Shown: positions 9,262 through 63,471 of the stretch, piece by piece
Position numbering within the stretch: the stretch's first letter is position 1
Layout: each line of letters starts with the position of its first letter
NCBI GenBank assembly: GCA_030601865.1
Contig: JAUWAW010000002.1
Coordinates: 7,410 to 71,409, forward strand
DNA: 64,000 nucleotides
Source: Candidatus Nealsonbacteria bacterium
Lineage (GTDB): Bacteria > Patescibacteriota > Minisyncoccia > Minisyncoccales > JAUWAW01
Direction of reading: 5' to 3'
Program-made: the position numbers and the translations under genes
The notes under the pieces: generated by a model
What the model was told of the DNA's origin: nothing
Databases searched by the model: none
What the model saw: the letters and a program-made list of their open reading frames with translations, nothing else

Positions 9262-9292
9262 ACCAAAAATTCGCCTTTTAGGCGAATTTTTG
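9262..9292. terminator. Hairpin/terminator after the DUF6580 gene
   Basis: CCAAAAATTCGCC-ttta-GGCGAATTTTTGG. The stem sequence resembles inner hairpin 1 of the three-way-junction repeat. Confidence 0.5.
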
Positions 9293-9314
9293 GGAGTTTT
9301 TTGGGGATGGTTTT

Positions 9315-9926
9315 TTACGCATTTTTCACTACAGCTATTTGGGGAACTCTAAATTTTTTTCTCAACCATACTTCTACTATCTCATAAGCTCCGAAAAAAA
9401 CAGTTGTATAAAATAGGTTCCCAATTAAAGTATTTTTGAAAAAAGGAAGAGCCATTAAATAGCATTGCCAGAGACCAGAAAAAGTTTTGGCATACCAGGG
9501 AGTAAAAACCCAAACAGCAAAATTGGTCAGGGCAAAAAATAAAAGAGCTGCCAAAAAAGCGCTGCCACCAATAGTGTACCATTTTTTATGCTTTTTCAGC
9601 CAGAACCCCAAAACCGCGAAAAGCAAAAAACTGCCGTAGACAAAAAACATTAAACTTAATTGGTAAGAACCAATAAACATATCAGAAATTACCATAGCTG
9701 CCATTGGTAAAATCAAGGCAGTTTTTCTGGAAAGATAAACTCCGGCAAACAAAGCAATGGCGGCAATAGGAGCAAAATTCGGCGGATGAGGCAAAAGCCG
9801 CAAACTGACCCCTACGACAATAAACAGCAAAACAATAACAAACTTTACCCCGTTAAATCCGCCAAAGGCGGTGCGGCAAAGCCGCAATTTAACAGGGTTT
9901 ATGATTTTTTCTTTTTGTGAAAACAT
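9315..9926 (-). CDS. DUF6580-like polytopic membrane protein (putative vitamin/B12-related transporter component)
   Basis: LRLLPHPPNFAPIAAIALFAGVYL motif and about 6 TM helices. It lies downstream of the cobalamin riboswitch and the DUF4430 gene. The N-terminal 25 aa are encoded by a repeat copy (9848-9897). Confidence 0.6.
   Translation of the reverse strand: MFSQKEKIINPVKLRLCRTAFGGFNGVKFVIVLLFIVVGVSLRLLPHPPNFAPIAAIALFAGVYLSRKTALILPMAAMVISDMFIGSYQLSLMFFVYGSFLLFAVLGFWLKKHKKWYTIGGSAFLAALLFFALTNFAVWVFTPWYAKTFSGLWQCYLMALPFFKNTLIGNLFYTTVFFGAYEIVEVWLRKKFRVPQIAVVKNA
9848..9897. repeat. Three-way-junction repeat, copy A1 (inside a CDS)
   Basis: CCCCGTTAAAT | CCGCCaaaGGCGG | TGCGGCaaaGCCGCA | ATTTAACAGGG. 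Read through as NPVKLRLCRTAFGGFNGV. Confidence 0.7.
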
Positions 9927-9931
9927 TTTTA

Positions 9932-10035
9932 ATCACCAAGATACAAGATACAATAACCAAACAAATTTCAATAATCAATCACCAAAAGATTTGGTTATTG
10001 GTGTTTGGTTATTGTTTGTTTCTTGTTTCTTGGTT
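9932..10035. repeat. Long imperfect hairpin, copy B1
   Basis: The 5' arm ATCACCAAGATACAAGATACAATAACCAAACA... is mirrored by ...TGTTTGGTTATTGTTTGTTTCTTGTTTCTTGGT. Homologous to 63347-63471. Confidence 0.7.
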
Positions 10036-10038
10036 ACT

Positions 10039-10497
10039 TTAAAAAGCTGATTCCTCAAATCTAAATTCTACTTTGTCGCCTGCTTTCAAAAGCTGTTTAT
10101 CAGCCGCCACAGAAGGCATCTCTCCATTAATATAATATAACCAGTATTTCCCGTCCTGTCCATTTTCTTTGTCTCCAATGGCTTCAATGAACACTCCTAT
10201 ATCTTCGTATGTTTTTGTTTTCAAATCAAGCTCCAATTTTCCAGCTCCCTTTTTCAACAAGTCAAAAGCGCTTGAACCTTTTTTAATCCTAATCTCAAGG
10301 GTCTGAACATTGCCAGAGCCATTATCAATAATTAAAGAATTTTCCTGAAAAAGTTTCTCATAAAGTACCTGACCCATTGAAGCAGCGCTCAAATTCTCTA
10401 TATCTGAACGGATTCTTCCTGCAAAAACACCTACTCCAATAAGAAGGATAACTCCCATTCCTATTAAAATTTTCAAATTTTTGTCTATCATGTTCAT
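10039..10497 (-). CDS. DUF4430 domain protein (transcobalamin/intrinsic-factor-like fold), membrane anchored
   Basis: DGKYWLYYINGEMPSVAADKQLLKAGDKVEFRF is the DUF4430 C-terminal pattern. It is the first gene after a cobalamin riboswitch. Confidence 0.7.
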   Translation of the reverse strand: MNMIDKNLKILIGMGVILLIGVGVFAGRIRSDIENLSAASMGQVLYEKLFQENSLIIDNGSGNVQTLEIRIKKGSSAFDLLKKGAGKLELDLKTKTYEDIGVFIEAIGDKENGQDGKYWLYYINGEMPSVAADKQLLKAGDKVEFRFEESAF

Positions 10498-10503
10498 AAA
10501 TTG

Positions 10504-10699
10504 AAAAAATCCCGCTTCAAGCGAGATAGGATGACCCTACTCTTTACTCGAAGAGAATTAGGTTAAAATTTTTATGGCGGCATTCTGGCTTTTTACCCAG
10601 TTAAATAATTTCGCCTCTGGCGAAATTGCTGCGGAGCAGCATTTAACCGGGTGAACAGTTGCGGTACAGCTCAGGAATTACACCTGATTTCTCACCATT
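10504..10699 (-). promoter_or_regulatory. Cobalamin (B12) riboswitch with terminator expression platform
   Basis: The minus-strand RNA reads GAGAAAUCAGGUGUAAUUCCUGAGCUGUACCGCAACUGU (core GGUG..AAUUCC..GCNG..CCGCNACUGU). B12 box AAGCCAGAAUGCCGCC (plus coords 10576-10590). Terminal CUCGCUUGAAGCGGG + UUUUUU (10504-10525). Confidence 0.65.
10596..10651. repeat. Three-way-junction repeat, copy A2 (embedded in the riboswitch variable region)
   Basis: CCCAGTTAAAT | AATTTCGCCtctGGCGAAATT | GCTGCggaGCAGC | ATTTAACCGGG. Differs from copy A3 at only 3 positions. Confidence 0.75.
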
Positions 10700-10705
10700 T
10701 ATTTA

Positions 10706-10733
10706 ATTTTACATTTCAAAACTCCTTTGTCAA
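10706..10733 (-). promoter_or_regulatory. Sigma-70-type promoter of the riboswitch operon
   Basis: Minus strand TTGACA (10733-10728), 16-nt spacer, TAAAAT (10711-10706). About 7 nt upstream of the riboswitch 5' end. Confidence 0.55.
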
Positions 10734-26106: not shown

Positions 26107-26120
26107 AAAAAAACCAGTTT

Positions 26121-26177
26121 ACCCAGTTAAATAATTTCGCCTTTGGCGAAATTGCTGTGAAGCAGCATTTAACCGGG
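26121..26177. repeat. Three-way-junction repeat, copy A3
   Basis: ACCCAGTTAAAT | AATTTCGCCtttGGCGAAATT | GCTGTgaaGCAGC | ATTTAACCGGGT. Confidence 0.75.
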
Positions 26178-26236
26178 TTTAACCTGTTTAACATAATCAT
26201 TTTGTATTCTAAACTTATTCTACTTTTTTGTCAAAA

Positions 26237-30368: not shown

Positions 30369-30468
30369 CTTCCACCTCTTCCTTATTGTATTGTTAAAAT
30401 GGAAGGACTACCTTCCACTATGTTTATTTTACCACCACAACATTAAGATGTAAATGAACACAGAACTC

Positions 30469-30507
30469 AATACGCCATAATTCTGCCATGGCTTTCTTAC
30501 GGCGTAT
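30469..30507. repeat. AATACGCC palindrome, copy C1
   Basis: AATACGCCATAATTCTGCCATGGCTTTCTTACGGCGTAT. It supplies the spurious upstream ATG (30488) of the next ORF. Confidence 0.75.
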
Positions 30508-31108: not shown

Positions 31109-31127
31109 AAAGCAAACTAGGACACAC

Positions 31128-31167
31128 AATACGCCATAAGAAAGCCATGGCTTTTTTATGGCGTATT
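31128..31167. repeat. AATACGCC palindrome, copy C2 (inverted relative to C1)
   Basis: AATACGCCATAAGAAAGCCATGGCTTTTTTATGGCGTATT. Confidence 0.75.
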
Positions 31168-36201: not shown

Positions 36202-37741
36202 TAATGTAGAATTACTTAAAACTTACCACAAATTGGTTAAAAAGAAAAGGTTGAAGAAAGACGGGGTAATAGAAAAGTTGCTTTGCACCAGGCCTATTCG
36301 TTCGCTTTCTGGCATTGTTAATGTCTCTGTTTTAACTAAGCCCTATCCCTGCCCGGGTCAATGTATTTTCTGCCCCAGCCAAAAAGGCATTCCCAAAAGT
36401 TATTTAAGGGGCGAACCTGCGGTTCAAAGGGCGATTTTAAATAAGTTTAATCCCTATTCGCAGGTCCAAACACGGCTAAAAAGTTTGCAAAAAACAGGCC
36501 ACCCAATAGACAAAATTGAATTAAGAATAATCGGTGGAACCTGGTCTTATTATCCCAAACAATATCAAACCCGGTTTGTTAAAGAATGCTTCCAAGCTTG
36601 CAACGAATTTTCTCCCCTAAAACAAATACGCCATAAGAAAGCCATGGCAGAATTACGGCGTATTAAGGAAAAGGAATTGGAAAAAGAATTGAAGAAAGAG
36701 CAAAAAGCAAACGAGAAAGCCAAGTGTCGGGTGGTTGGAATAACAATTGAAACTAGGCCAGATTATATAGATATTAAAGAAATAAAGCGGATGAGAGAAC
36801 TGGGCATAACCAGGGTGGAATTGGGGGTGCAAAGCATTTACAATGATGTTTTGAAATTAAACAAAAGGGGCCATGGCATAGAAGCGACAATTAAAGCAAC
36901 CAAACTTCTGAAAGAGTCCGGCTTTAAGGTTTCTTATCAAATGATGCCCAATTTGCCCGGCAGTACCTCCAAAAAAGACGTAAAAATGTTTGAAGAGATT
37001 TTTGAAAACCCTGATTTCCAACCCGACCTCTTGAAAATTTATCCCTTGGCCTTGCTCAAAGAAGCTCCTTTGTATAAATGGTATCAAAGAGGAAAGTTTA
37101 AACCGTATTCTGATAAAAAATTAATTAAGCTTTTAATAGAAATCAAAAAGAAAATCCCTTATTGGTGCAGAATCCAAAGGGTAATCCGGGATATTCCCTC
37201 AGCAGATATTGTTGAAGGAGGAGTTAAAATCTCAAATTTAAGAGAAGTTGTTCAAAAAGAAATGAAGAAGCAAGGATTGAAATGCAAATGCATCAGATGC
37301 CGGGAGGTGAAAAAAGATTACAACTCCCAAGAAAAATCTGTGCTTTTTCGCCAGGACTATAATGCCTCTGGCGGCAAGGAGGTATTTCTGACTTTTGAAG
37401 ATAAAAAAAGACAAAAACTCTATGCTCTGCTCCGCCTGCGCATCCCCTATCCAAAAGTGGCAAAGGACAGTCCTCTGCCAATTCTGAAGGATGCGGCGAT
37501 AATTAGGGAGGTTCATACTTATGGTCAACTCCTACCCATTCAACACAGAGATAGGACGAAAATAGGACAGTCGCCTCAACATAAGGGGTTAGGCAAAAAA
37601 CTGATTAAGCAGGGAGAAGAAATCGCCAAACAAGAGTTTGGCACAAAAAAAATAGCCGTCATCTCCGGCGTGGGAGTCAGGGCATATTACAGAAAACTCG
37701 GCTATCACCTGAAGGATACTTATATGATTAAAAAACTGTAA
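36086..37741 (+). CDS. elp3: Elp3-type radical SAM/GNAT tRNA U34 modification enzyme
   Basis: Radical-SAM cluster region PCPGQCIFCPS, VVGITIETRPD, RVELGVQS, and C-terminal GNAT QHKGLGKKLIKQGEEIA. Confidence 0.85.
   Translation: MSILEKIILELLKSRVKTRADLDSFKRKVAKEYKTPCPTNVELLKTYHKLVKKKRLKKDGVIEKLLCTRPIRSLSGIVNVSVLTKPYPCPGQCIFCPSQKGIPKSYLRGEPAVQRAILNKFNPYSQVQTRLKSLQKTGHPIDKIELRIIGGTWSYYPKQYQTRFVKECFQACNEFSPLKQIRHKKAMAELRRIKEKELEKELKKEQKANEKAKCRVVGITIETRPDYIDIKEIKRMRELGITRVELGVQSIYNDVLKLNKRGHGIEATIKATKLLKESGFKVSYQMMPNLPGSTSKKDVKMFEEIFENPDFQPDLLKIYPLALLKEAPLYKWYQRGKFKPYSDKKLIKLLIEIKKKIPYWCRIQRVIRDIPSADIVEGGVKISNLREVVQKEMKKQGLKCKCIRCREVKKDYNSQEKSVLFRQDYNASGGKEVFLTFEDKKRQKLYALLRLRIPYPKVAKDSPLPILKDAAIIREVHTYGQLLPIQHRDRTKIGQSPQHKGLGKKLIKQGEEIAKQEFGTKKIAVISGVGVRAYYRKLGYHLKDTYMIKKL
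36625..36664. repeat. AATACGCC palindrome, copy C3, in frame in elp3
   Basis: AATACGCCATAAGAAAGCCATGGCAGAATTACGGCGTATT, translated as IRHKKAMAELRRI. Confidence 0.75.
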
Positions 37742-39093: not shown

Positions 39094-39398
39094 TGCTTTG
39101 ACGAAGATACCTTACCAGAATTTTAACCTTTTGTCAAACTCTGTTTCAATCTGCTCCGATCGGAGTAATTTGAAACGCTTTACCAAAAAATAAAAATGTT
39201 TAAAACTCACGATCGTGAGTTATTTAAACAAAGAAAAATATAATAGCCGTCCCGCAAGGAACGGCGGATAAGTTCACTGAGAGAAAATGCCTCCAGTAAA
39301 ACCGATTTTCCCTCTGTTTGCTGCTTCATTACAATTGCCCCCTTTCTGTTCTATGAGGTTTCTCTTTCTTCACAAATTGGTAAAGTTCTAATCTCCTG

Positions 39399-51876: not shown

Positions 51877-51909
51877 TTAGAATTTAACGTCATATTCTCA
51901 GGTTCATTT

Positions 51910-51945
51910 TGTGTCAAAATCCTGCGATCGCAGGATTTTGACACA
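51910..51945. repeat. Perfect 36-nt palindrome centred on GCGATCGC, copy H7
   Basis: TGTGTCAAAATCCTGCGATCGCAGGATTTTGACACA. Identical to 59186-59221, including the flanks TTT...GTTTT. Confidence 0.85.
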
Positions 51946-51960
51946 GTTTTTTATTGTTTA

Positions 51961-59170: not shown

Positions 59171-59185
59171 TATCTCTGTCAATTT

Positions 59186-59221
59186 TGTGTCAAAATCCTG
59201 CGATCGCAGGATTTTGACACA
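59186..59221. repeat. Perfect 36-nt palindrome centred on GCGATCGC, copy H8
   Basis: Identical to 51910-51945. Confidence 0.85.
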
Positions 59222-59237
59222 GTTTTGAAAGTAGAAA

Positions 59238-59272: not shown

Positions 59273-60784
59273 CTATGGGGTGGGCGGTGAGGCCTGACTA
59301 GCCGGGCAGGCAGTGTCTTTATCTGGTATACCACCTACACCTGTCCAGTGTGCCTCACATCCTTTGCCTTGTTCACATAAAAAAGTTTGGCGTTCGTCTA
59401 CGTCAGAACACTCAGCAGCACTAATTATCTTAAAGCTGTCCAAATCATCTTCCCAAGTTCCTTTTGCCTCACCCCATTTAGCTCCTAATTCACACTTTTC
59501 TAAATCATCGTAAAAGTTTTTAAAGCATATTTCAGCCCATTGTGTTCCAGGCCATCCTTGGGCTAATGTGCTGCATTGGGGCGTGGCATAAATTTTTATA
59601 GCGTAGCCCGAATCTATTTTTATTGAACGGATTTTATCCCAGACACGTTCATAACATTGTTCAACTACTTCCAAACCTTGGGTGCGGTCGCCGCTCCAGT
59701 CTTTATTAAAAAACAGGACGACTTTATATTCTGGCGAAGGCGCTAGATTTAATATTACTTTGGCGGGTATTACCCATTTATCTCCAGATTTCTGTCTATA
59801 TTTTTCAGGTATATAATCTTTATCAAAAGGAATTTCCCAACTTTCATCTATTGTAAATGTTCCTCCTTTCATATCTAACGTTTTTTTGCCTATTTCCTTT
59901 TCAACCCTGTGTCCCAGTATATTTACCCCCACTGTGAGCTTCATCTCTTCTTTGGCGCCTGGGTCTACTGTTATTCTAAATGGTCCTTCGTCTTTTGTGT
60001 ATACGGTGGTGAGTTGTTTAATTTCCTTTGGTCCGTAATGCCACACCCCTAAAGTAGCTTCAATAGTTGTTTTGCCTGGTATTCCTGCTATTGGTTCTAT
60101 TTTTGTTATTGTAAGCTTTATAGGAAGGTCTTCTCCAATGGCAAGATGGAAAGTTTTATCTAGGGAAACAAAGTTTCTTGAACTAAAATCCTTTGACCAT
60201 AATTCATCAACTCCTTCAATAATATAGGCCTTTTTATTGTCTGTATCAACTTTTAGTACAACCGCACGGTATAGGGTTTCGTATTTTATGCCTGTATTTA
60301 TATCCCATGCAAAAGTGGAAGGGCTGATTTCCGGCTCTATTACTCTAACGCTTATTGTTCCTACCCGGGCAAGGGGGAGTTTTGTCATTTTTTCCAAGTC
60401 AGGTTCTTTTAGGGCGACTAATTCTGGGTTAATGGTGTTGAGGATTAAGTAAGAACCGAGGAGCAGAGCCAGGCCTAAGAGCGCGGAGAAGATTTGGTTT
60501 TTGGCATCACCCATTTTGCTGGGGTCGCCCATTGAGGTTAGATAGCGAAACCCACCCACTACAATCATAATGAAAGCAGCTACTCCGGCAATGACCAGAA
60601 ATACATTAAAAAGCTCTCCAACGAGCGTTACTAAAGAGGTCTCGCCTGCTGCCATTTTCTCTCTTGTTTCTTTAAGAAACCAATCGGGATAGTCAAGCTG
60701 AAAAGCATAAACCGACGAGGACAAAAGAAGTCCGAGTAAGATAATAAAGGTTGTTTTAATTAGTTGTTTTGAGAATTGAGTCAT
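59273..60784 (-). CDS. Pilin-module fusion protein 1: signal peptide + VirB2/TrbC-like two-TM 'T4SS pilin' module + about 380-aa beta-rich ectodomain with a Cys-rich tail
   Basis: SSSVYAFQLDYPDW...LVGELFNVFLVIAGVAAFIMIVVGGFRYLTSMGDPSKMGDAKNQIFSALLGLALLLGSYLILNTINPELV. The module is about 75% identical to that of the next gene. Confidence 0.6.
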   Translation of the reverse strand: MTQFSKQLIKTTFIILLGLLLSSSVYAFQLDYPDWFLKETREKMAAGETSLVTLVGELFNVFLVIAGVAAFIMIVVGGFRYLTSMGDPSKMGDAKNQIFSALLGLALLLGSYLILNTINPELVALKEPDLEKMTKLPLARVGTISVRVIEPEISPSTFAWDINTGIKYETLYRAVVLKVDTDNKKAYIIEGVDELWSKDFSSRNFVSLDKTFHLAIGEDLPIKLTITKIEPIAGIPGKTTIEATLGVWHYGPKEIKQLTTVYTKDEGPFRITVDPGAKEEMKLTVGVNILGHRVEKEIGKKTLDMKGGTFTIDESWEIPFDKDYIPEKYRQKSGDKWVIPAKVILNLAPSPEYKVVLFFNKDWSGDRTQGLEVVEQCYERVWDKIRSIKIDSGYAIKIYATPQCSTLAQGWPGTQWAEICFKNFYDDLEKCELGAKWGEAKGTWEDDLDSFKIISAAECSDVDERQTFLCEQGKGCEAHWTGVGGIPDKDTACPASQASPPTP

Positions 60785-60840: not shown

Positions 60841-60960
60841 GTTAACCCTGTCAAATAAAAATTCTCCGAATTTTTACGGCTCGCCCTGTTAAATAATTTG
60901 CTTTGCAAATTAAAATCGGAGATTTTATTTAACGGGGCAAGCCGTATTTGACGGGGTTAA
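60841..60960. repeat. Nested three-way-junction repeats (copy A4 inside another copy)
   Basis: Outer copy: GTTAACCCTGTCAAATA | AAAATTCtccGAATTTT | TACGGCT[..]AGCCGTA | TATTTGACGGGGTTAA. Inner copy (60883-60938): GCCCTGTTAAAT | AATTTGCtttGCAAATT | AAAATCggaGATTTT | ATTTAACGGGGC. Confidence 0.75.
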
Positions 60961-63344
60961 TCTGGGCAAGCTCCTCCTTCTACTGTTGGCCCTATTATAG
61001 GATGTACTATAATAGCAATATGGTCTTTCTCCGCCCAAGTAGTCCCGCCGCACCTGTGAATGGTATCCGTTAAGGCACTAATTTTATGTTGGTCTTTAAG
61101 CTCTACAGCATAAGAGAAAGCTACTTCTCTCCAGGGCTTAATAAGGGTACATATCTTTCCATAATGCCAGGAGCCACACTCCCGGACACACTTATCAGGG
61201 TCATTTGACTCACCGCAATTAACTTCCGGATTTTGACAGGGTGGCAATTTACATTTGTCATAGTCACACCCGTCAGTGCCTCCTCTATCTGGAAGGTTCG
61301 GGTCAGAGATTGAACTAATGGGACCAGGATTTATAGGTGCACCTTTAACTGGGTCTGTGTAAATGCACTCAATAACGTCTTTTAGAGCTTGAGTAGCATC
61401 ACTCCATTGTTTTGAAGTTTTAATAAATCCTGCGAATACCCCTGCCTTGTCGCAATCCGGAATTTTATCTGTATCGCAGACCATAGGCCAGGGAGGACCG
61501 CTTGGTTTTTCGGTACAAACCCCTTGGCAACAATAACCAATCGCGCAAGCACCGGTTAGAATAGAACAGTTATTATAAGCGCTACAAGGATTATCTTTAC
61601 AAATTCCAGTGCATGTTGTAGGCACCACTGGTCCTCCTGTTACCTCTCCACAGACAAAGAAATCAATTGGCCCACATTCTTTTATTTTTTGTATTAAATC
61701 CGGTGTTGTTGGGCAGCAGGGAAAGATATCGTAGCCGGGACAATGATCCGGGTTTCCAGTCCATAGATATCCAGTTTCTGTATTATCATATTCTAACATA
61801 GCTTGTATATCCTCGCAAAGATAAAGACCTTGGCCCGTAGAAGCTCTTTTTGTTTCATCTACTATACCGGCTAAAGTAGTATAGTGTTGTCTTAATCCGT
61901 CAGGACACAAAACATCAGAACATATTTCTTCTGGCTTTGGCCCAGCAATTTGCTTTGCCTTTTGTTTTTTCTCGGCAAAGCCATTAGGGAAAGGAGCAGA
62001 GGAATTTTCAGGTTGTTCACAGGGTGCCCCACATTCCCAGGGAGGAATTAGGCCATCGCCTTTGGTGTGGCAGCCCTGAAGATCAGGCAAGCACCAGAAC
62101 TTTGTTATTCTTTCATTTAGTTCTGCTTTAAGAGGAGGAAGAGGAGGAGAGCAAGAGCAATTGACATTTTTACATTGACAGCCATCAGCTGCTGCAGCTA
62201 ATTTATCAATGGCATCATATGCTTGTTTAAGTGGCTCTATGGGAAAGGTAATTTTTTCATATTTTGTCTCTTCTCCCTCTGCCCAGATGCAATAGAAATC
62301 ACGTCCCTCTTCGCAGTCAATTGGCCCGAGCCAATCTTGGACACTCTTGGCATATGAGCAGGGGAAAAGTATTTTTCCTTCATCAGCTATACACTCGTTT
62401 ATATCTTCTTTTGCCTGGTCTAAGGCTAATTTTAATTTATCTGCTGTTAATAAACCCTCGTTAACAACTGTTTCAACTTTGTCTATTGCTTTATTGATCC
62501 CGTTTTCTGCATTTGGTTCTGGGCAGGTTTCTTCTCCGGTATCGCAGAAAGGCGGAGTGCAGTTCCCTGGAGGGTCTGGAAAGGATCGTGATATTGGAAT
62601 TATTATTGGTTCGGTGCCTCCTGGACAACCCAGATCAGTACAAGGTTGGAAACAGTAAAGCCCTATAAATGGGAGAGTTGCCCACGGTTTACAGCAACCG
62701 TCATAAAGACATGGGCCCCATGCTGGTATATTTATTACCATCTCGCCCTCCACTGCAAATTGATATTGACAATTATGTCCTTTGCAGTATTGCCGTGCAT
62801 CGCGCTGTTTGGCGAATTTGGCAAAACTTGTCATTGTTCCTACGACATTTTTTGTTTTAAGAAATTTTATGGTGTCGTCAATTGCCTGGTCTAAATCAAT
62901 TGAGGTAATAACTTTTGGTATTGGCGGAGTAGGAGGTTCTGGCGGTTCTGGTTCTGGAGCTTTGACCACTTCTTCTATGGTTGGTTCTGTTAATTCTACT
63001 AATTCAGGACCAATGGTATTGAGAATTAAAAAAGAAGCCAGCAAAAGCACCAAGCCAATTAAAGCATTGAAGACCTGGCTTTTAGCATCACCCATTTTGC
63101 TGGGGTTGCCCATTGAGGTTAAATAACGAAATCCGCCCACGACAATCATAATGAAAGCAGCTGCTCCGGCGATGACCAGAAACATATTAAAAAGAGCGCC
63201 AACCAAATCTTTCAAAGACATATCTGTTTCAAGGGGCAACCAATCAGGATAGTCAAGTTGGAGAGCGTAGACAGAAGAAGTAAAAGAAAGCCCGAGTAGA
63301 ACGAGAAATGTTATTTGGATTGAATATCTTGAGAGATTAGACAC
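60957..63344 (-). CDS. Pilin-module fusion protein 2: signal peptide + VirB2/TrbC-like pilin module + Pro-rich linker + about 650-aa very Cys-rich ectodomain
   Basis: TSSVYALQLDYPDW...LVGALFNMFLVIAGAAAFIMIVVGGFRYLTSMGNPSKMGDAKSQVFNALIGLVLLLASFLILNTIGPELV, then PEPEPPEPPTPPIP, then dozens of Cys. I prefer the GTG at 63344 (VSNLSRYSIQITFLVLLG, parallel to MTQFSKQLIKTTFIILLG). The track TTG start at 63383 lies in repeat B2. Confidence 0.6.
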   Translation of the reverse strand: MSNLSRYSIQITFLVLLGLSFTSSVYALQLDYPDWLPLETDMSLKDLVGALFNMFLVIAGAAAFIMIVVGGFRYLTSMGNPSKMGDAKSQVFNALIGLVLLLASFLILNTIGPELVELTEPTIEEVVKAPEPEPPEPPTPPIPKVITSIDLDQAIDDTIKFLKTKNVVGTMTSFAKFAKQRDARQYCKGHNCQYQFAVEGEMVINIPAWGPCLYDGCCKPWATLPFIGLYCFQPCTDLGCPGGTEPIIIPISRSFPDPPGNCTPPFCDTGEETCPEPNAENGINKAIDKVETVVNEGLLTADKLKLALDQAKEDINECIADEGKILFPCSYAKSVQDWLGPIDCEEGRDFYCIWAEGEETKYEKITFPIEPLKQAYDAIDKLAAAADGCQCKNVNCSCSPPLPPLKAELNERITKFWCLPDLQGCHTKGDGLIPPWECGAPCEQPENSSAPFPNGFAEKKQKAKQIAGPKPEEICSDVLCPDGLRQHYTTLAGIVDETKRASTGQGLYLCEDIQAMLEYDNTETGYLWTGNPDHCPGYDIFPCCPTTPDLIQKIKECGPIDFFVCGEVTGGPVVPTTCTGICKDNPCSAYNNCSILTGACAIGYCCQGVCTEKPSGPPWPMVCDTDKIPDCDKAGVFAGFIKTSKQWSDATQALKDVIECIYTDPVKGAPINPGPISSISDPNLPDRGGTDGCDYDKCKLPPCQNPEVNCGESNDPDKCVRECGSWHYGKICTLIKPWREVAFSYAVELKDQHKISALTDTIHRCGGTTWAEKDHIAIIVHPIIGPTVEGGACPD

Positions 63345-63346
63345 AG

Positions 63347-63471
63347 AATAATCACCAAGATACAAGAAACAATAACCAAACAAATCTCAATAACCAATAA
63401 CCAAACAGTTTGGTGATTGGTTATTGAAGATTGGTTATTGTTTGTATCTTGTTTCTTGGTGATTGGTTATT
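63347..63471. repeat. Long imperfect hairpin, copy B2
   Basis: AATAATCACCAAGATACAAGAAACAATAACCAAACAAATCTCAATAACCAATAACCAAAC-ag-GTTTGGTGATTGGTTATTGAAGATTGGTTATTGTTTGTATCTTGTTTCTTGGTGATTGGTTATT. Confidence 0.75.

Follow-up and report, generated by a model that had tools for sequence, protein, structure and literature searches.

A dispersed three-way-junction element in loop L6 of a probable class-II cobalamin riboswitch preceding a DUF4430-DUF6580 operon in Candidatus Nealsonbacteria

A stretch of 64,000 nucleotides from a Candidatus Nealsonbacteria bacterium (contig JAUWAW010000002.1; hereafter the window) contains on its minus strand a small operon in which a promoter, a cobalamin riboswitch leader and an intrinsic terminator precede genes for a membrane-anchored DUF4430 protein and a DUF6580 membrane protein, the two genes being separated by a long hairpin (Table 1). 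The nrdD and nrdG genes are the upstream neighbours of this operon. The layout had been proposed from the letters alone by a model (the sequence-only reading), and promoter, aptamer core, B12 box, terminator and both genes were found on the minus strand where that reading had put them or close by; the intergenic hairpin is also present, with 106 nt instead of the 104 nt it had given. Within the aptamer lies a copy of a dispersed structured repeat. The leader is probably a functional OFF switch of class II, responding to cobalamin, for a B12 scavenging operon of the cbrS/cbrT kind, with a selfish element tolerated at the tip of helix P6. Both the class of riboswitch and the pair of transporter genes belong to known kinds. 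New are the mobile structured element inside the aptamer, which lowers it under the Rfam threshold, and the family to which the element belongs, a family that spans phyla, has invariant arms and covarying hairpins, and is inserted in-frame in essential genes of genome-reduced bacteria.

The aptamer core (AUGGUGAGAAAUCAGGUGUAAUUCCUGAGCUGUACCGCAACUGU, first base at position 10698 of the minus strand) was aligned to the consensus of the adenosylcobalamin (AdoCbl) family RF01689 (AdoCbl-II) and to homologous leaders. The conserved core is present, including GGUG-(G)GAAA, a P4 helix with a GUGnAAnUC loop, CUGUaCC-GCAAC and P6, with P3 closed by a B12-box-like AGCCAGAAUnCCnCC. Relatives of the DUF4430 protein (n = 253) are located essentially all on metagenome contigs of Patescibacteria. 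The leader of a 66%-identical relative, locus L003 (likewise L127 and L129), exceeds the RF01689 gathering threshold with 39.7 bits, as does the leader shared by L133 and L134 with 39.4 bits. The window leader aligns with those of L003 and L133 from promoter through terminator, both homologs having TTGACA-17-TACAAT/TAATAT in the corresponding relative position. In a four-sequence alignment representing three lineages, the proposed pairs are formed in 95% of cells, compared with about 40% for slid partners. Six pairs show changes on both sides. They are distributed over P4, P6 and P13 (U-A to C-G in each of the latter two), the terminator and the kissing loop of L5 and L13, in which L133 has UGC/GCA, a compensatory replacement of A-U by G-C, instead of the UAC/GUA found in L003 and the window. 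The homologous leaders and compensatory changes bear out the earlier identification of a cobalamin riboswitch; judged by sequence in this small sample, the leader looks as a conserved, working class-II riboswitch with a kissing-loop-controlled terminator should.

Some observations weigh against this assignment. At gathering thresholds Rfam reported only tRNAs over the whole window, with no cobalamin family, and the riboswitch covariation comes from few events in the three lineages. The best match of the cobalamin clan (CL00101) in a 501-nt search was RF01689, whose 34.8 bits (E=1.4e-6) fall short of the cutoff, 36.5. RF00174, which the sequence-only reading had expected, fell below RF01689 in E-value mode, was suppressed as an overlapping clan match and scored under its gathering threshold, the RNA being of the short class-II type. 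The score of the window leader is sub-threshold because the RF01689 model cannot span the insert of about 60 nt: its alignment closes P3 through GGUGA and UCACC, the latter from the 5' flank of the element, and skips the true B12 box. The low score is thus an insertion artefact. The alternative P3 chosen by the model was rejected, with -37.6 kcal/mol, 6.7 worse than the canonical pairing, and a probability of about 0 at equilibrium; the minimum free energy of the whole aptamer (-44.3 kcal/mol) is reached with canonical P3 and P4 kept and P3 pair probabilities of about 0.8. Also unfavourable is the composition of the window P3: it contains one U.G pair and, next to the junction, an A x C mismatch where G-C is the pair in both homologs and in the RF01689 consensus. 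This helix is weaker than that of L003, and the aptamer could be impaired.

The insert itself was delimited by comparison with the simple P6 hairpins of the relatives. A second occurrence of the 56-nt segment at 10596-10651, differing by exactly 3 mismatches, was found at 26122-26177 (0 expected from shuffles), as the sequence-only reading had noticed, and the full repeat unit amounts to about 59-64 nt when the conserved flanks (uuC-ACCC...GGGU-AAA) are counted. In L133, P6 is the canonical class-II CCG-UUAAAGU-CGG; in L003 it reads CUG-UAA[GCCC-GAAA-GGGC]AAAGC-CAG, and in the window CUG-UU[CACCCGG...CUGGGU, the 59-nt element]AAAAAGC-CAG. The repeat therefore interrupts the terminal loop L6, preceded by the conserved UU and followed by the A-rich 3' half of L6, and it is absent from L6 of both L003 and L133. 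Alone it folds with -30.4 kcal/mol into a 12-bp stem bearing two hairpins, and it forms a separate domain within the fold of the full aptamer. These alignments support the view that the segment is an inserted mobile structured element and not a canonical P6 extension, because the relatives are without it and class-II aptamers have none. The earlier proposal of a mobile structured element was upheld by the dispersal of the family across genomes, phyla and protein-coding genes. The site that it occupies is loop L6 and not a pre-existing peripheral domain, which qualifies the sequence-only reading. Two results run counter to an insertion: the riboswitch copy has no recognizable target-site duplication, and no empty site was found in a closely related strain. 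A scan of metagenomes with a 19-nt riboswitch core returned only the L003 population and one chance match, with neither an empty-site allele nor a second element-bearing riboswitch.

Two features of the homologs were observed at comparable loops. The small GC hairpin of L003, located at the identical point of L6, shares CCC/GGG-N-AAA edges with the element and may be a collapsed remnant of it. In L133 (1480-1500; also in L134), a 21-nt GC-rich hairpin is inserted in loop L4 of the RF01689 riboswitch, another peripheral-loop insertion in this riboswitch family.

Table 1. Features of the operon and copies of the element, in positions of the window (R1, covariance model of the element family)
Feature	Positions	Strand	Basis or remark
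Sigma-70-type promoter TTGACA-16-TAAAAT	10706..10733	minus	11/12 consensus matches in promoter scan
Cobalamin aptamer, class II / RF01689 type	10574..10698	minus	covariance-model match, fold, homolog alignment
P3, AUGGUG paired with CGCCAU	10698-10693 with 10579-10574	minus	
P4	10687-10671	minus	
P5/L5	10670-10658	minus	
P6, CUG paired with CAG	10658-10656 with 10587-10585	minus	
Element copy 1, three-way junction in L6	10592..10655 (core CACCC...GGGU, 10653-10595)	minus	repeat search, R1 75.4 bits
B12-box-like AAGCCAGAAUGCCGCCAU	10591-10574	minus	
P13 hairpin CUCUU-CGAGUA-AAGAG	10540..10555	minus	conserved in L003 and L133
Expression platform, antiterminator versus intrinsic terminator	10504..10542	minus	terminator scan and fold energies
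Intrinsic terminator AUCUCGC-UUGAA-GCGGGAU + U6	10527-10504 (hairpin 10527-10509)	minus	scan
DUF4430 protein, 152 aa, membrane-anchored	10039..10497	minus	Pfam PF14478, E=5e-16
Long hairpin of 106 nt between the DUF4430 and DUF6580 genes	9930..10035	minus	dG -37 kcal/mol, z=-6.9
DUF6580 membrane protein, 203 aa	9315..9926	minus	Pfam PF20221, E=2e-50
Element copy 3, in-frame in N-terminal tail of DUF6580	9844..9901	minus	R1 47 bits
Terminator-like hairpin, operon end	9263..9293	unassigned	scan matched plus strand only
Element copy 2	26118..26181	minus	95% identical to copy 1, repeat search and R1
Nested element pair, intergenic	60846..60956	unassigned	inner copy 60880-60941 within outer copy with GTCAAAT/ATTTGAC arms

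In the expression platform, the antiterminator, formed by the 3' strand of P13 and the 5' strand of the terminator, has a fold energy of -19.0 kcal/mol, compared with -16.0 for P13 plus terminator. The greater stability of the antiterminator is consistent with an OFF switch that needs a ligand-stabilized P13 for termination. In the bound state L5 (UAC) would kiss L13 (GUA) and stabilize P13, the terminator would then be able to form, and transcription would end ahead of the operon; with no cobalamin present, the more stable antiterminator would form and the operon would be transcribed. Its products would be a B12-scavenging pair, consisting of a membrane-anchored protein with an extracytoplasmic transcobalamin-beta-like domain (DUF4430, CbrS-like) and a CbrT-like S-component (DUF6580) of the energy-coupling factor (ECF) type. 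A miniature palindromic element of about 60 nt has invaded the P6 terminal loop, and by folding autonomously at the tip of P6 it leaves intact P3 to P6 and the B12 box as well as the terminator and the partner of the kissing loop. Such an element is most likely tolerated and not functional.

The energy difference can also be read as a sign that the riboswitch is decaying or dead, the insertion and the weakened P3 having abolished ligand control, with the antiterminator as thermodynamic default and constitutive B12 uptake genes. This is unlikely, and it has several points to recommend it. The Rfam score is under threshold, and P3 carries its U.G and A x C where the homologs are Watson-Crick. 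GGUGA is fully complementary to UCACC in the 5' flank of the element, offering a co-transcriptional misfold that is the very pairing chosen by the Rfam model. Several orthologous DUF4430-DUF6580 loci (L005, L137) are without a riboswitch, indicating that regulation is dispensable in the lineage, and the 95% identity of copy 1 to copy 2 suggests a recent event on which selection has perhaps yet to judge. Against decay, the core nucleotides outside P3 are all intact, as are the B12 box, P13, the terminator and the complementarity of L5 and L13. The canonical P3 is ahead by the 6.7 kcal/mol given above, which makes the misfold negligible at equilibrium, and the misfold must in addition compete with the element's own 12-bp stem. 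A working OFF switch is the favoured interpretation.

Comparison with the two known riboswitch classes places the insert more precisely. With class-II riboswitches (RF01689, CL00101; env8-type), the window leader shares a short P6 within the P3-J3/4-P4-P5-P6-B12-box core, a kissing loop of L5 and L13 that couples aptamer and platform, and a transcription terminator acting as OFF switch; it differs by the 59-nt three-way-junction insert in L6 and by the wobble and mismatch in P3. In class-I riboswitches (RF00174), additional helices likewise leave P6, from an equivalent topological position. There they form a conserved P7-P11 domain, whereas in the window a dispersed mobile element, recently copied, supplies them. 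The possibility that the segment is a native canonical P6 extension, the other copies being coincidental or derived, is effectively excluded: the class-I position and the stable multi-helix junction would suit it, but the nearest homologs have short P6 hairpins, the class-II aptamer type lacks such an extension, and well over 120 family copies occur in unrelated contexts, including inside proteins.

Another possibility is that the three-way junction has been co-opted, as a new P6 extension that stabilizes the aptamer or shifts its selectivity (e.g. to AdoCbl, as in class I), or as an element of leader processing or stability. The insert in L6 is at the exact position of the class-I P6 extension, a correspondence drawn from structures of the two classes that were published in 2012. 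The A-rich 3' half of L6 (AAAAAGC), which is conserved, is kept as an internal loop, and L003 bears an extra hairpin at the equivalent point. Co-option is nonetheless highly improbable. Copy 1 shares 95% identity with a copy that is not in a riboswitch, and it fits the family consensus, with no riboswitch-specific adaptation; the homologs function without the element. Only one instance was found: two core motifs were not found beside the element in at least 120 other loci, by a narrow screen whose broader core expression also missed the known L003 riboswitch. A tolerated insertion is preferred, and it shows that a selfish structured element can probably lodge in one of the peripheral loops of a riboswitch aptamer whose architecture is apparently kept. 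It also exposes a blind spot of covariance-model annotation, by which an insert masks a genuine riboswitch; similar elements may hide other RNAs of the candidate phyla radiation (CPR).

The distribution of the element was determined by scanning the arm pattern ACCCNGTTAAA N20-50 TTTAACNGGGTAA against the 596-Gb set of GTDB representatives. At least 120 loci were retrieved, against about 2 expected by chance according to an estimate made here from the specificity of the pattern. Among the matches listed, the hosts comprise many Patescibacteria lineages, including Nealson-, Staskawicz-, Nomura-, Moran-, Kaiser-, Doudna- and Saccharibacteria, and, outside Patescibacteria, Omnitrophota, WOR-3/Stahlbacteria, Thermodesulfobacteriota (Desulfobacterota), Bacteroidales, Calditrichaceae, Cloacimonadota, and others. 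Some of the cross-phylum assignments are drawn from metagenome bins, where contamination is possible, which counts against so wide a range. Contamination is countered by copies on a 4.1-Mb Desulfatiglandales contig and in a single-cell genome.

The family has the consensus (uu)C-ACCCyGUUAAAU-[hairpin]-[hairpin]-AUUUAACrGGGU-AAA and an element length of 47-72 nt. A three-way-junction fold was obtained for 86 of 123 distinct copies, the interior having a median z-score of -3.1 relative to shuffles. The covariance model R1 was built from 35 copies, and 150 matches were realigned with it. In this realignment the outer helix of 12-bp arms is invariant save at one position, and in both inner helices all pairs (13/13) are changed on both sides, with all four Watson-Crick types represented. 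The covariation score was 0.463, compared with 0.098 for shuffled alignments and 0.05-0.10 for slid partners, a difference somewhat inflated by an alignment that was fitted to the model and included both strands of palindromic copies.

Searches of Rfam gave no family over the window copy at E-values up to 10, and 18 element loci yielded rRNA and tRNA only, by which a part in a known non-coding RNA was discarded. A hammerhead or other small ribozyme was likewise rejected, the junction nucleotides not being conserved and Rfam matches being absent in the same search. An integron attC site was rejected because the element has the motifs, on both strands, in the order GTTAAAT...ATTTAAC, opposite to the R''(RYYYAAC)...R'(GTTRRRY) of attC, and because its loci are not organized as cassette arrays. 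A CRISPR-like array does not agree with single, dispersed copies, nor a phage-borne element with a single match in IMG/VR.

Among the matches listed, about three quarters of the copies are intergenic, and many 8-kb loci hold several copies. Nine copies in the same set lie in the middle of long open reading frames (ORFs), always in one frame, where they encode HPVK...FN(R/G)VK. By their sequences, the nine host ORFs look like GatA, KsgA, ribosomal protein L18, ComEC, DNA polymerase I, triosephosphate isomerase, FtsZ, a GT1 glycosyltransferase and a membrane protein. Pfam searches of five of the nine gave Amidase, RrnaAD, L18p, TIM and GT1 domains that span the insert, flank it or are split by it. 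Direct repeats of at least 7 nt flank 19 copies, where 3.0 would be expected and 200 permutations gave 8 at most, and the longest string shared by the two flanks averages 4.76, compared with 3.84 +/- 0.09. These repeats are of variable length and stand in A-rich flanks, and no such repeat accompanies the riboswitch copy. Around the at least 120 listed loci neither a transposase nor a recurrent neighbour protein was seen, only generic ATPases and GTPases recurring. Given no recurrent protein family and the single IMG/VR match, the elements would be non-autonomous.

Terminal inverted repeats, small size, a non-coding nature and many dispersed copies are the properties by which bacterial MITEs (miniature transposable elements with inverted repeats) and Rickettsia palindromic elements (RPEs) are recognized, and all of them are present in the window family. 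As described for RPEs and bacterial MITEs (PMC10969869), its members are short, palindromic, dispersed and found also in non-coding regions. RPEs further resemble them in being inserted in-frame into unrelated housekeeping genes, to which they add a conserved peptide, and the flanks of the window family are like target-site duplications. The differences are in size (47-72 nt, against about 150 for RPEs), in the invariant 12-bp arms which with two covarying hairpins make a three-way junction, and in range, the window family occurring in several phyla and RPEs in one genus (PMC10969869). In the pneumococcal trp leader, a BOX element that stands between two T-box riboswitches (PMC3049150) provides a parallel for the riboswitch copy, as a structured repeat co-transcribed in one leader with regulation apparently retained. 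The BOX element separates two complete riboswitches (PMC3049150), whereas the window element is situated within an aptamer, in the P6 loop.

A description of the family was not found in the literature by sequence, peptide motif or topic, in a search that had most subscription journals outside its reach, and the family is not claimed to be unreported. A broader and rather doubtful interpretation would have the three-way-junction repeat as an undescribed cross-phylum class of miniature mobile modules that colonize proteins, in-frame, and functional RNAs, the riboswitch copy being a case of peripheral helices of an aptamer caught while being added, to be domesticated later. If so, peripheral helices such as the class-I P6 extension could be added by mobile-element insertion and then domesticated. 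The insertion suggests in any case a concrete possible route to the origin of riboswitch peripheral domains, and the survey exposes a very abundant element family that spans phyla and resides in essential genes of genome-reduced bacteria.

Several variants were noticed during the survey. A subfamily in WOR-3/Stahlbacteria (L047, L049, L051, L065, L069, L085, L086, L091, L093, L099 and L125) keeps the invariant arms around an unstructured interior of about 40 nt, and has the 8-mer ACGCAGAT, or its complement, directly repeated on its two flanks. Ten loci (L011, L040, L059, L080, L084, L102, L108, L109, L112 and L118) share a context of about 200 nt, ...AUAAUUUUGAGC[3WJ]AGGUUUUGU-hairpin-ACAAAGCCCUUUA, where 3WJ is the three-way junction. 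These are unrelated genomic sites, e.g. between rpsJ and rplC in L084, with no neighbouring protein in common, and the shared context may be a composite element or an undescribed non-coding RNA. In a complete Nealsonbacteria genome (CP179888; L052, 1194-1257), an element copy is placed about 29 nt upstream of the 23S rRNA 5' end, in the spacer of the rRNA operon. At L005 (8990-9067; also L006), where nrdD-nrdG-DUF4430-DUF6580-comEC are syntenic and no riboswitch is present, the gap holds a different three-way junction with ACCC...GGGUAAA ends (dG -30.2, z -6.5), which R1 did not detect.

At least five copies of the element occur in the window, i.e. copies 1 to 3 and the nested pair; the sequence-only reading, which had noted two, was right about the repeat and low in its count. 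Copy 2 lies between rtcB and a basic ORF of 50 aa, with flanks AAACAGGTT and AAACTGGTT, a context without a riboswitch. Copy 3, about 700 nt downstream of copy 1, is in the frame usual for the family and adds 18 residues (NPVKLRLCRTAFGGFNGV) to the cytoplasmic tail ahead of the first helix of the DUF6580 protein. In an alignment of 25 DUF6580 homologs this insert occurs only in the window protein, the 24 others being without it. The inner copy of the nested pair, which was outside the set used to build R1, was recovered by the model with 41.1 bits (E=5.6e-10). The pair is located between two large paralogous genes for cysteine-rich secreted proteins (59273-60784 and 60957-63383).

The two proteins encoded by the operon were compared with known systems of B12 uptake. 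The DUF4430 protein matches PF14478 with 59.3 bits (cutoff 23.8), and its AlphaFold2 model (predicted local distance difference test, pLDDT, 86) has an N-terminal membrane helix and a domain for which Foldseek returned the beta domains of transcobalamin, haptocorrin and intrinsic factor (E=1.7e-6 to 7e-5). Superposed on the isolated human beta domain (5NO0/5NP4), it gave a root-mean-square deviation of about 2-2.7 A and a template modelling (TM) score of 0.76-0.80. The protein thus models as transcobalamin-beta-like and CbrS-like, with putative cobalamin binding. The DUF6580 model (pLDDT 85) is a six-helix bundle whose top Foldseek matches are the S-components FolT, RibU, ThiT and PanT (probability 0.85-0.99, TM 0.5-0.63), and it models as an ECF S-component fold of the CbrT-like type. 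Neither protein was matched by any NCBIfam model.

Genes of B12 metabolism adjoin the pair in relatives. The arrangements include nrdJ-cobA/btuR-DUF4430-DUF6580, a B12-binding radical S-adenosylmethionine (SAM) protein followed by DUF4430-DUF6580, and a riboswitch followed by a 607-aa protein, a protein of 179 aa, DUF4430 and DUF6580. The riboswitch-led operons of L003 (183-2006) and L133 (1638-3461) open with the 607-aa protein, in which a squalene-cyclase-like alpha-barrel plus DUF4430 make up a full transcobalamin-like architecture. In another relative (L130, 1-3410), the class-II ribonucleotide reductase gene adjoining the uptake pair holds an intein with an HNH endonuclease domain. A gene cluster nrdJ-cbrS-cbrT-pduO is known from Lactobacillus delbrueckii (PMC5997447), and in L. 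rhamnosus a DUF4430 gene adjoins that of the B12-dependent reductase rtpR (PMC9963975). The DUF4430-DUF6580 pair most plausibly corresponds, in CPR, to the cbrS-cbrT pair of Lactobacillales, and would act in transport.

The likeness to the L. delbrueckii system (ECF-CbrT, PDB 6FNP; PMC5997447) consists in the order of a DUF4430-type gene and a six-helix S-component gene, and in the link to nrdJ and a cobalamin adenosyltransferase shown by the relatives of the window pair. The two differ in that DUF6580 is a separate Pfam family, only remotely CbrT-like, and in the riboswitch control of the CPR pair in some lineages. Several results weigh against the correspondence. The Foldseek E-values of DUF6580 are poor, and the sequence link to CbrT is weak: searched against the PDB, the single sequence matched nothing, and the family profile had as its sole match 6FNP_A (E=3.5e-4, 23.8 bits, helices 1-3). 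Chain A of that entry ('Membrane protein', 182 residues) is taken here to be CbrT. No ATP-binding cassette (ABC) ATPase signature LSGGQ was found in ORFs of at least 120 aa across the window, in keeping with the earlier remark that no energizing genes are adjacent, and no ECF module stood beside the pair in the other loci inspected. Nor did tblastn searches with NrdJ, CobA, the B12-radical-SAM protein and the 607-aa transcobalamin-like protein match anything in the window, which revealed no B12-dependent enzyme.

CbrT requires an ECF module (PMC5997447), for which reason the 'minimal' B12 unit suggested by the sequence-only reading is unproven. Solitary operation of DUF6580 is possible by analogy, as proposed for BtuM, a solitary S-component-like B12 transporter (PMC6072759). 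Both are small proteins of S-component fold, implicated in B12 uptake in organisms that have, or in the case of DUF6580 may have, no ECF module; DUF6580 differs in having a DUF4430 partner, and a PDB search gave no sequence match to BtuM. Among the 25 DUF6580 homologs, H47 is invariant and C155 near-invariant, and it may be speculated that these residues could ligate cobalt as Cys80 of BtuM does. A literature search on DUF6580, again with most subscription journals outside it, returned nothing relevant. The comparisons tie DUF4430 and DUF6580 to cbrS/cbrT B12 uptake, and raise the question of how Patescibacteria energize B12 import.

Some details of the operon remain to be mentioned. In the public annotation, the DUF4430 gene (P0001, 139 aa) starts 13 codons downstream (region 10446-10497) of the start favoured by homologs, MNMIDKNLKILIG, to be compared with MQIVDKNLKILIA of L005. 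A protein identical to the DUF6580 protein was found in only two short Logan contigs. The palindromic stem at the operon end, matched by the scan on the plus strand, could also serve the minus-strand operon.

Other structured repeats were seen in the window. A separate repeat family, rich in CCAA/TTGG, includes the 106-nt intergenic hairpin of the operon, which has a second copy of 87% identity at 63349-63454; both copies stand directly upstream of a gene start. Intergenic palindromic hairpins of one further family occur at 39138-39182, 51906-51950 and 59182-59226, and those of another at 30465-30507, 31124-31166 and 36621-36663. The genome appears to be rich in structured repeats.

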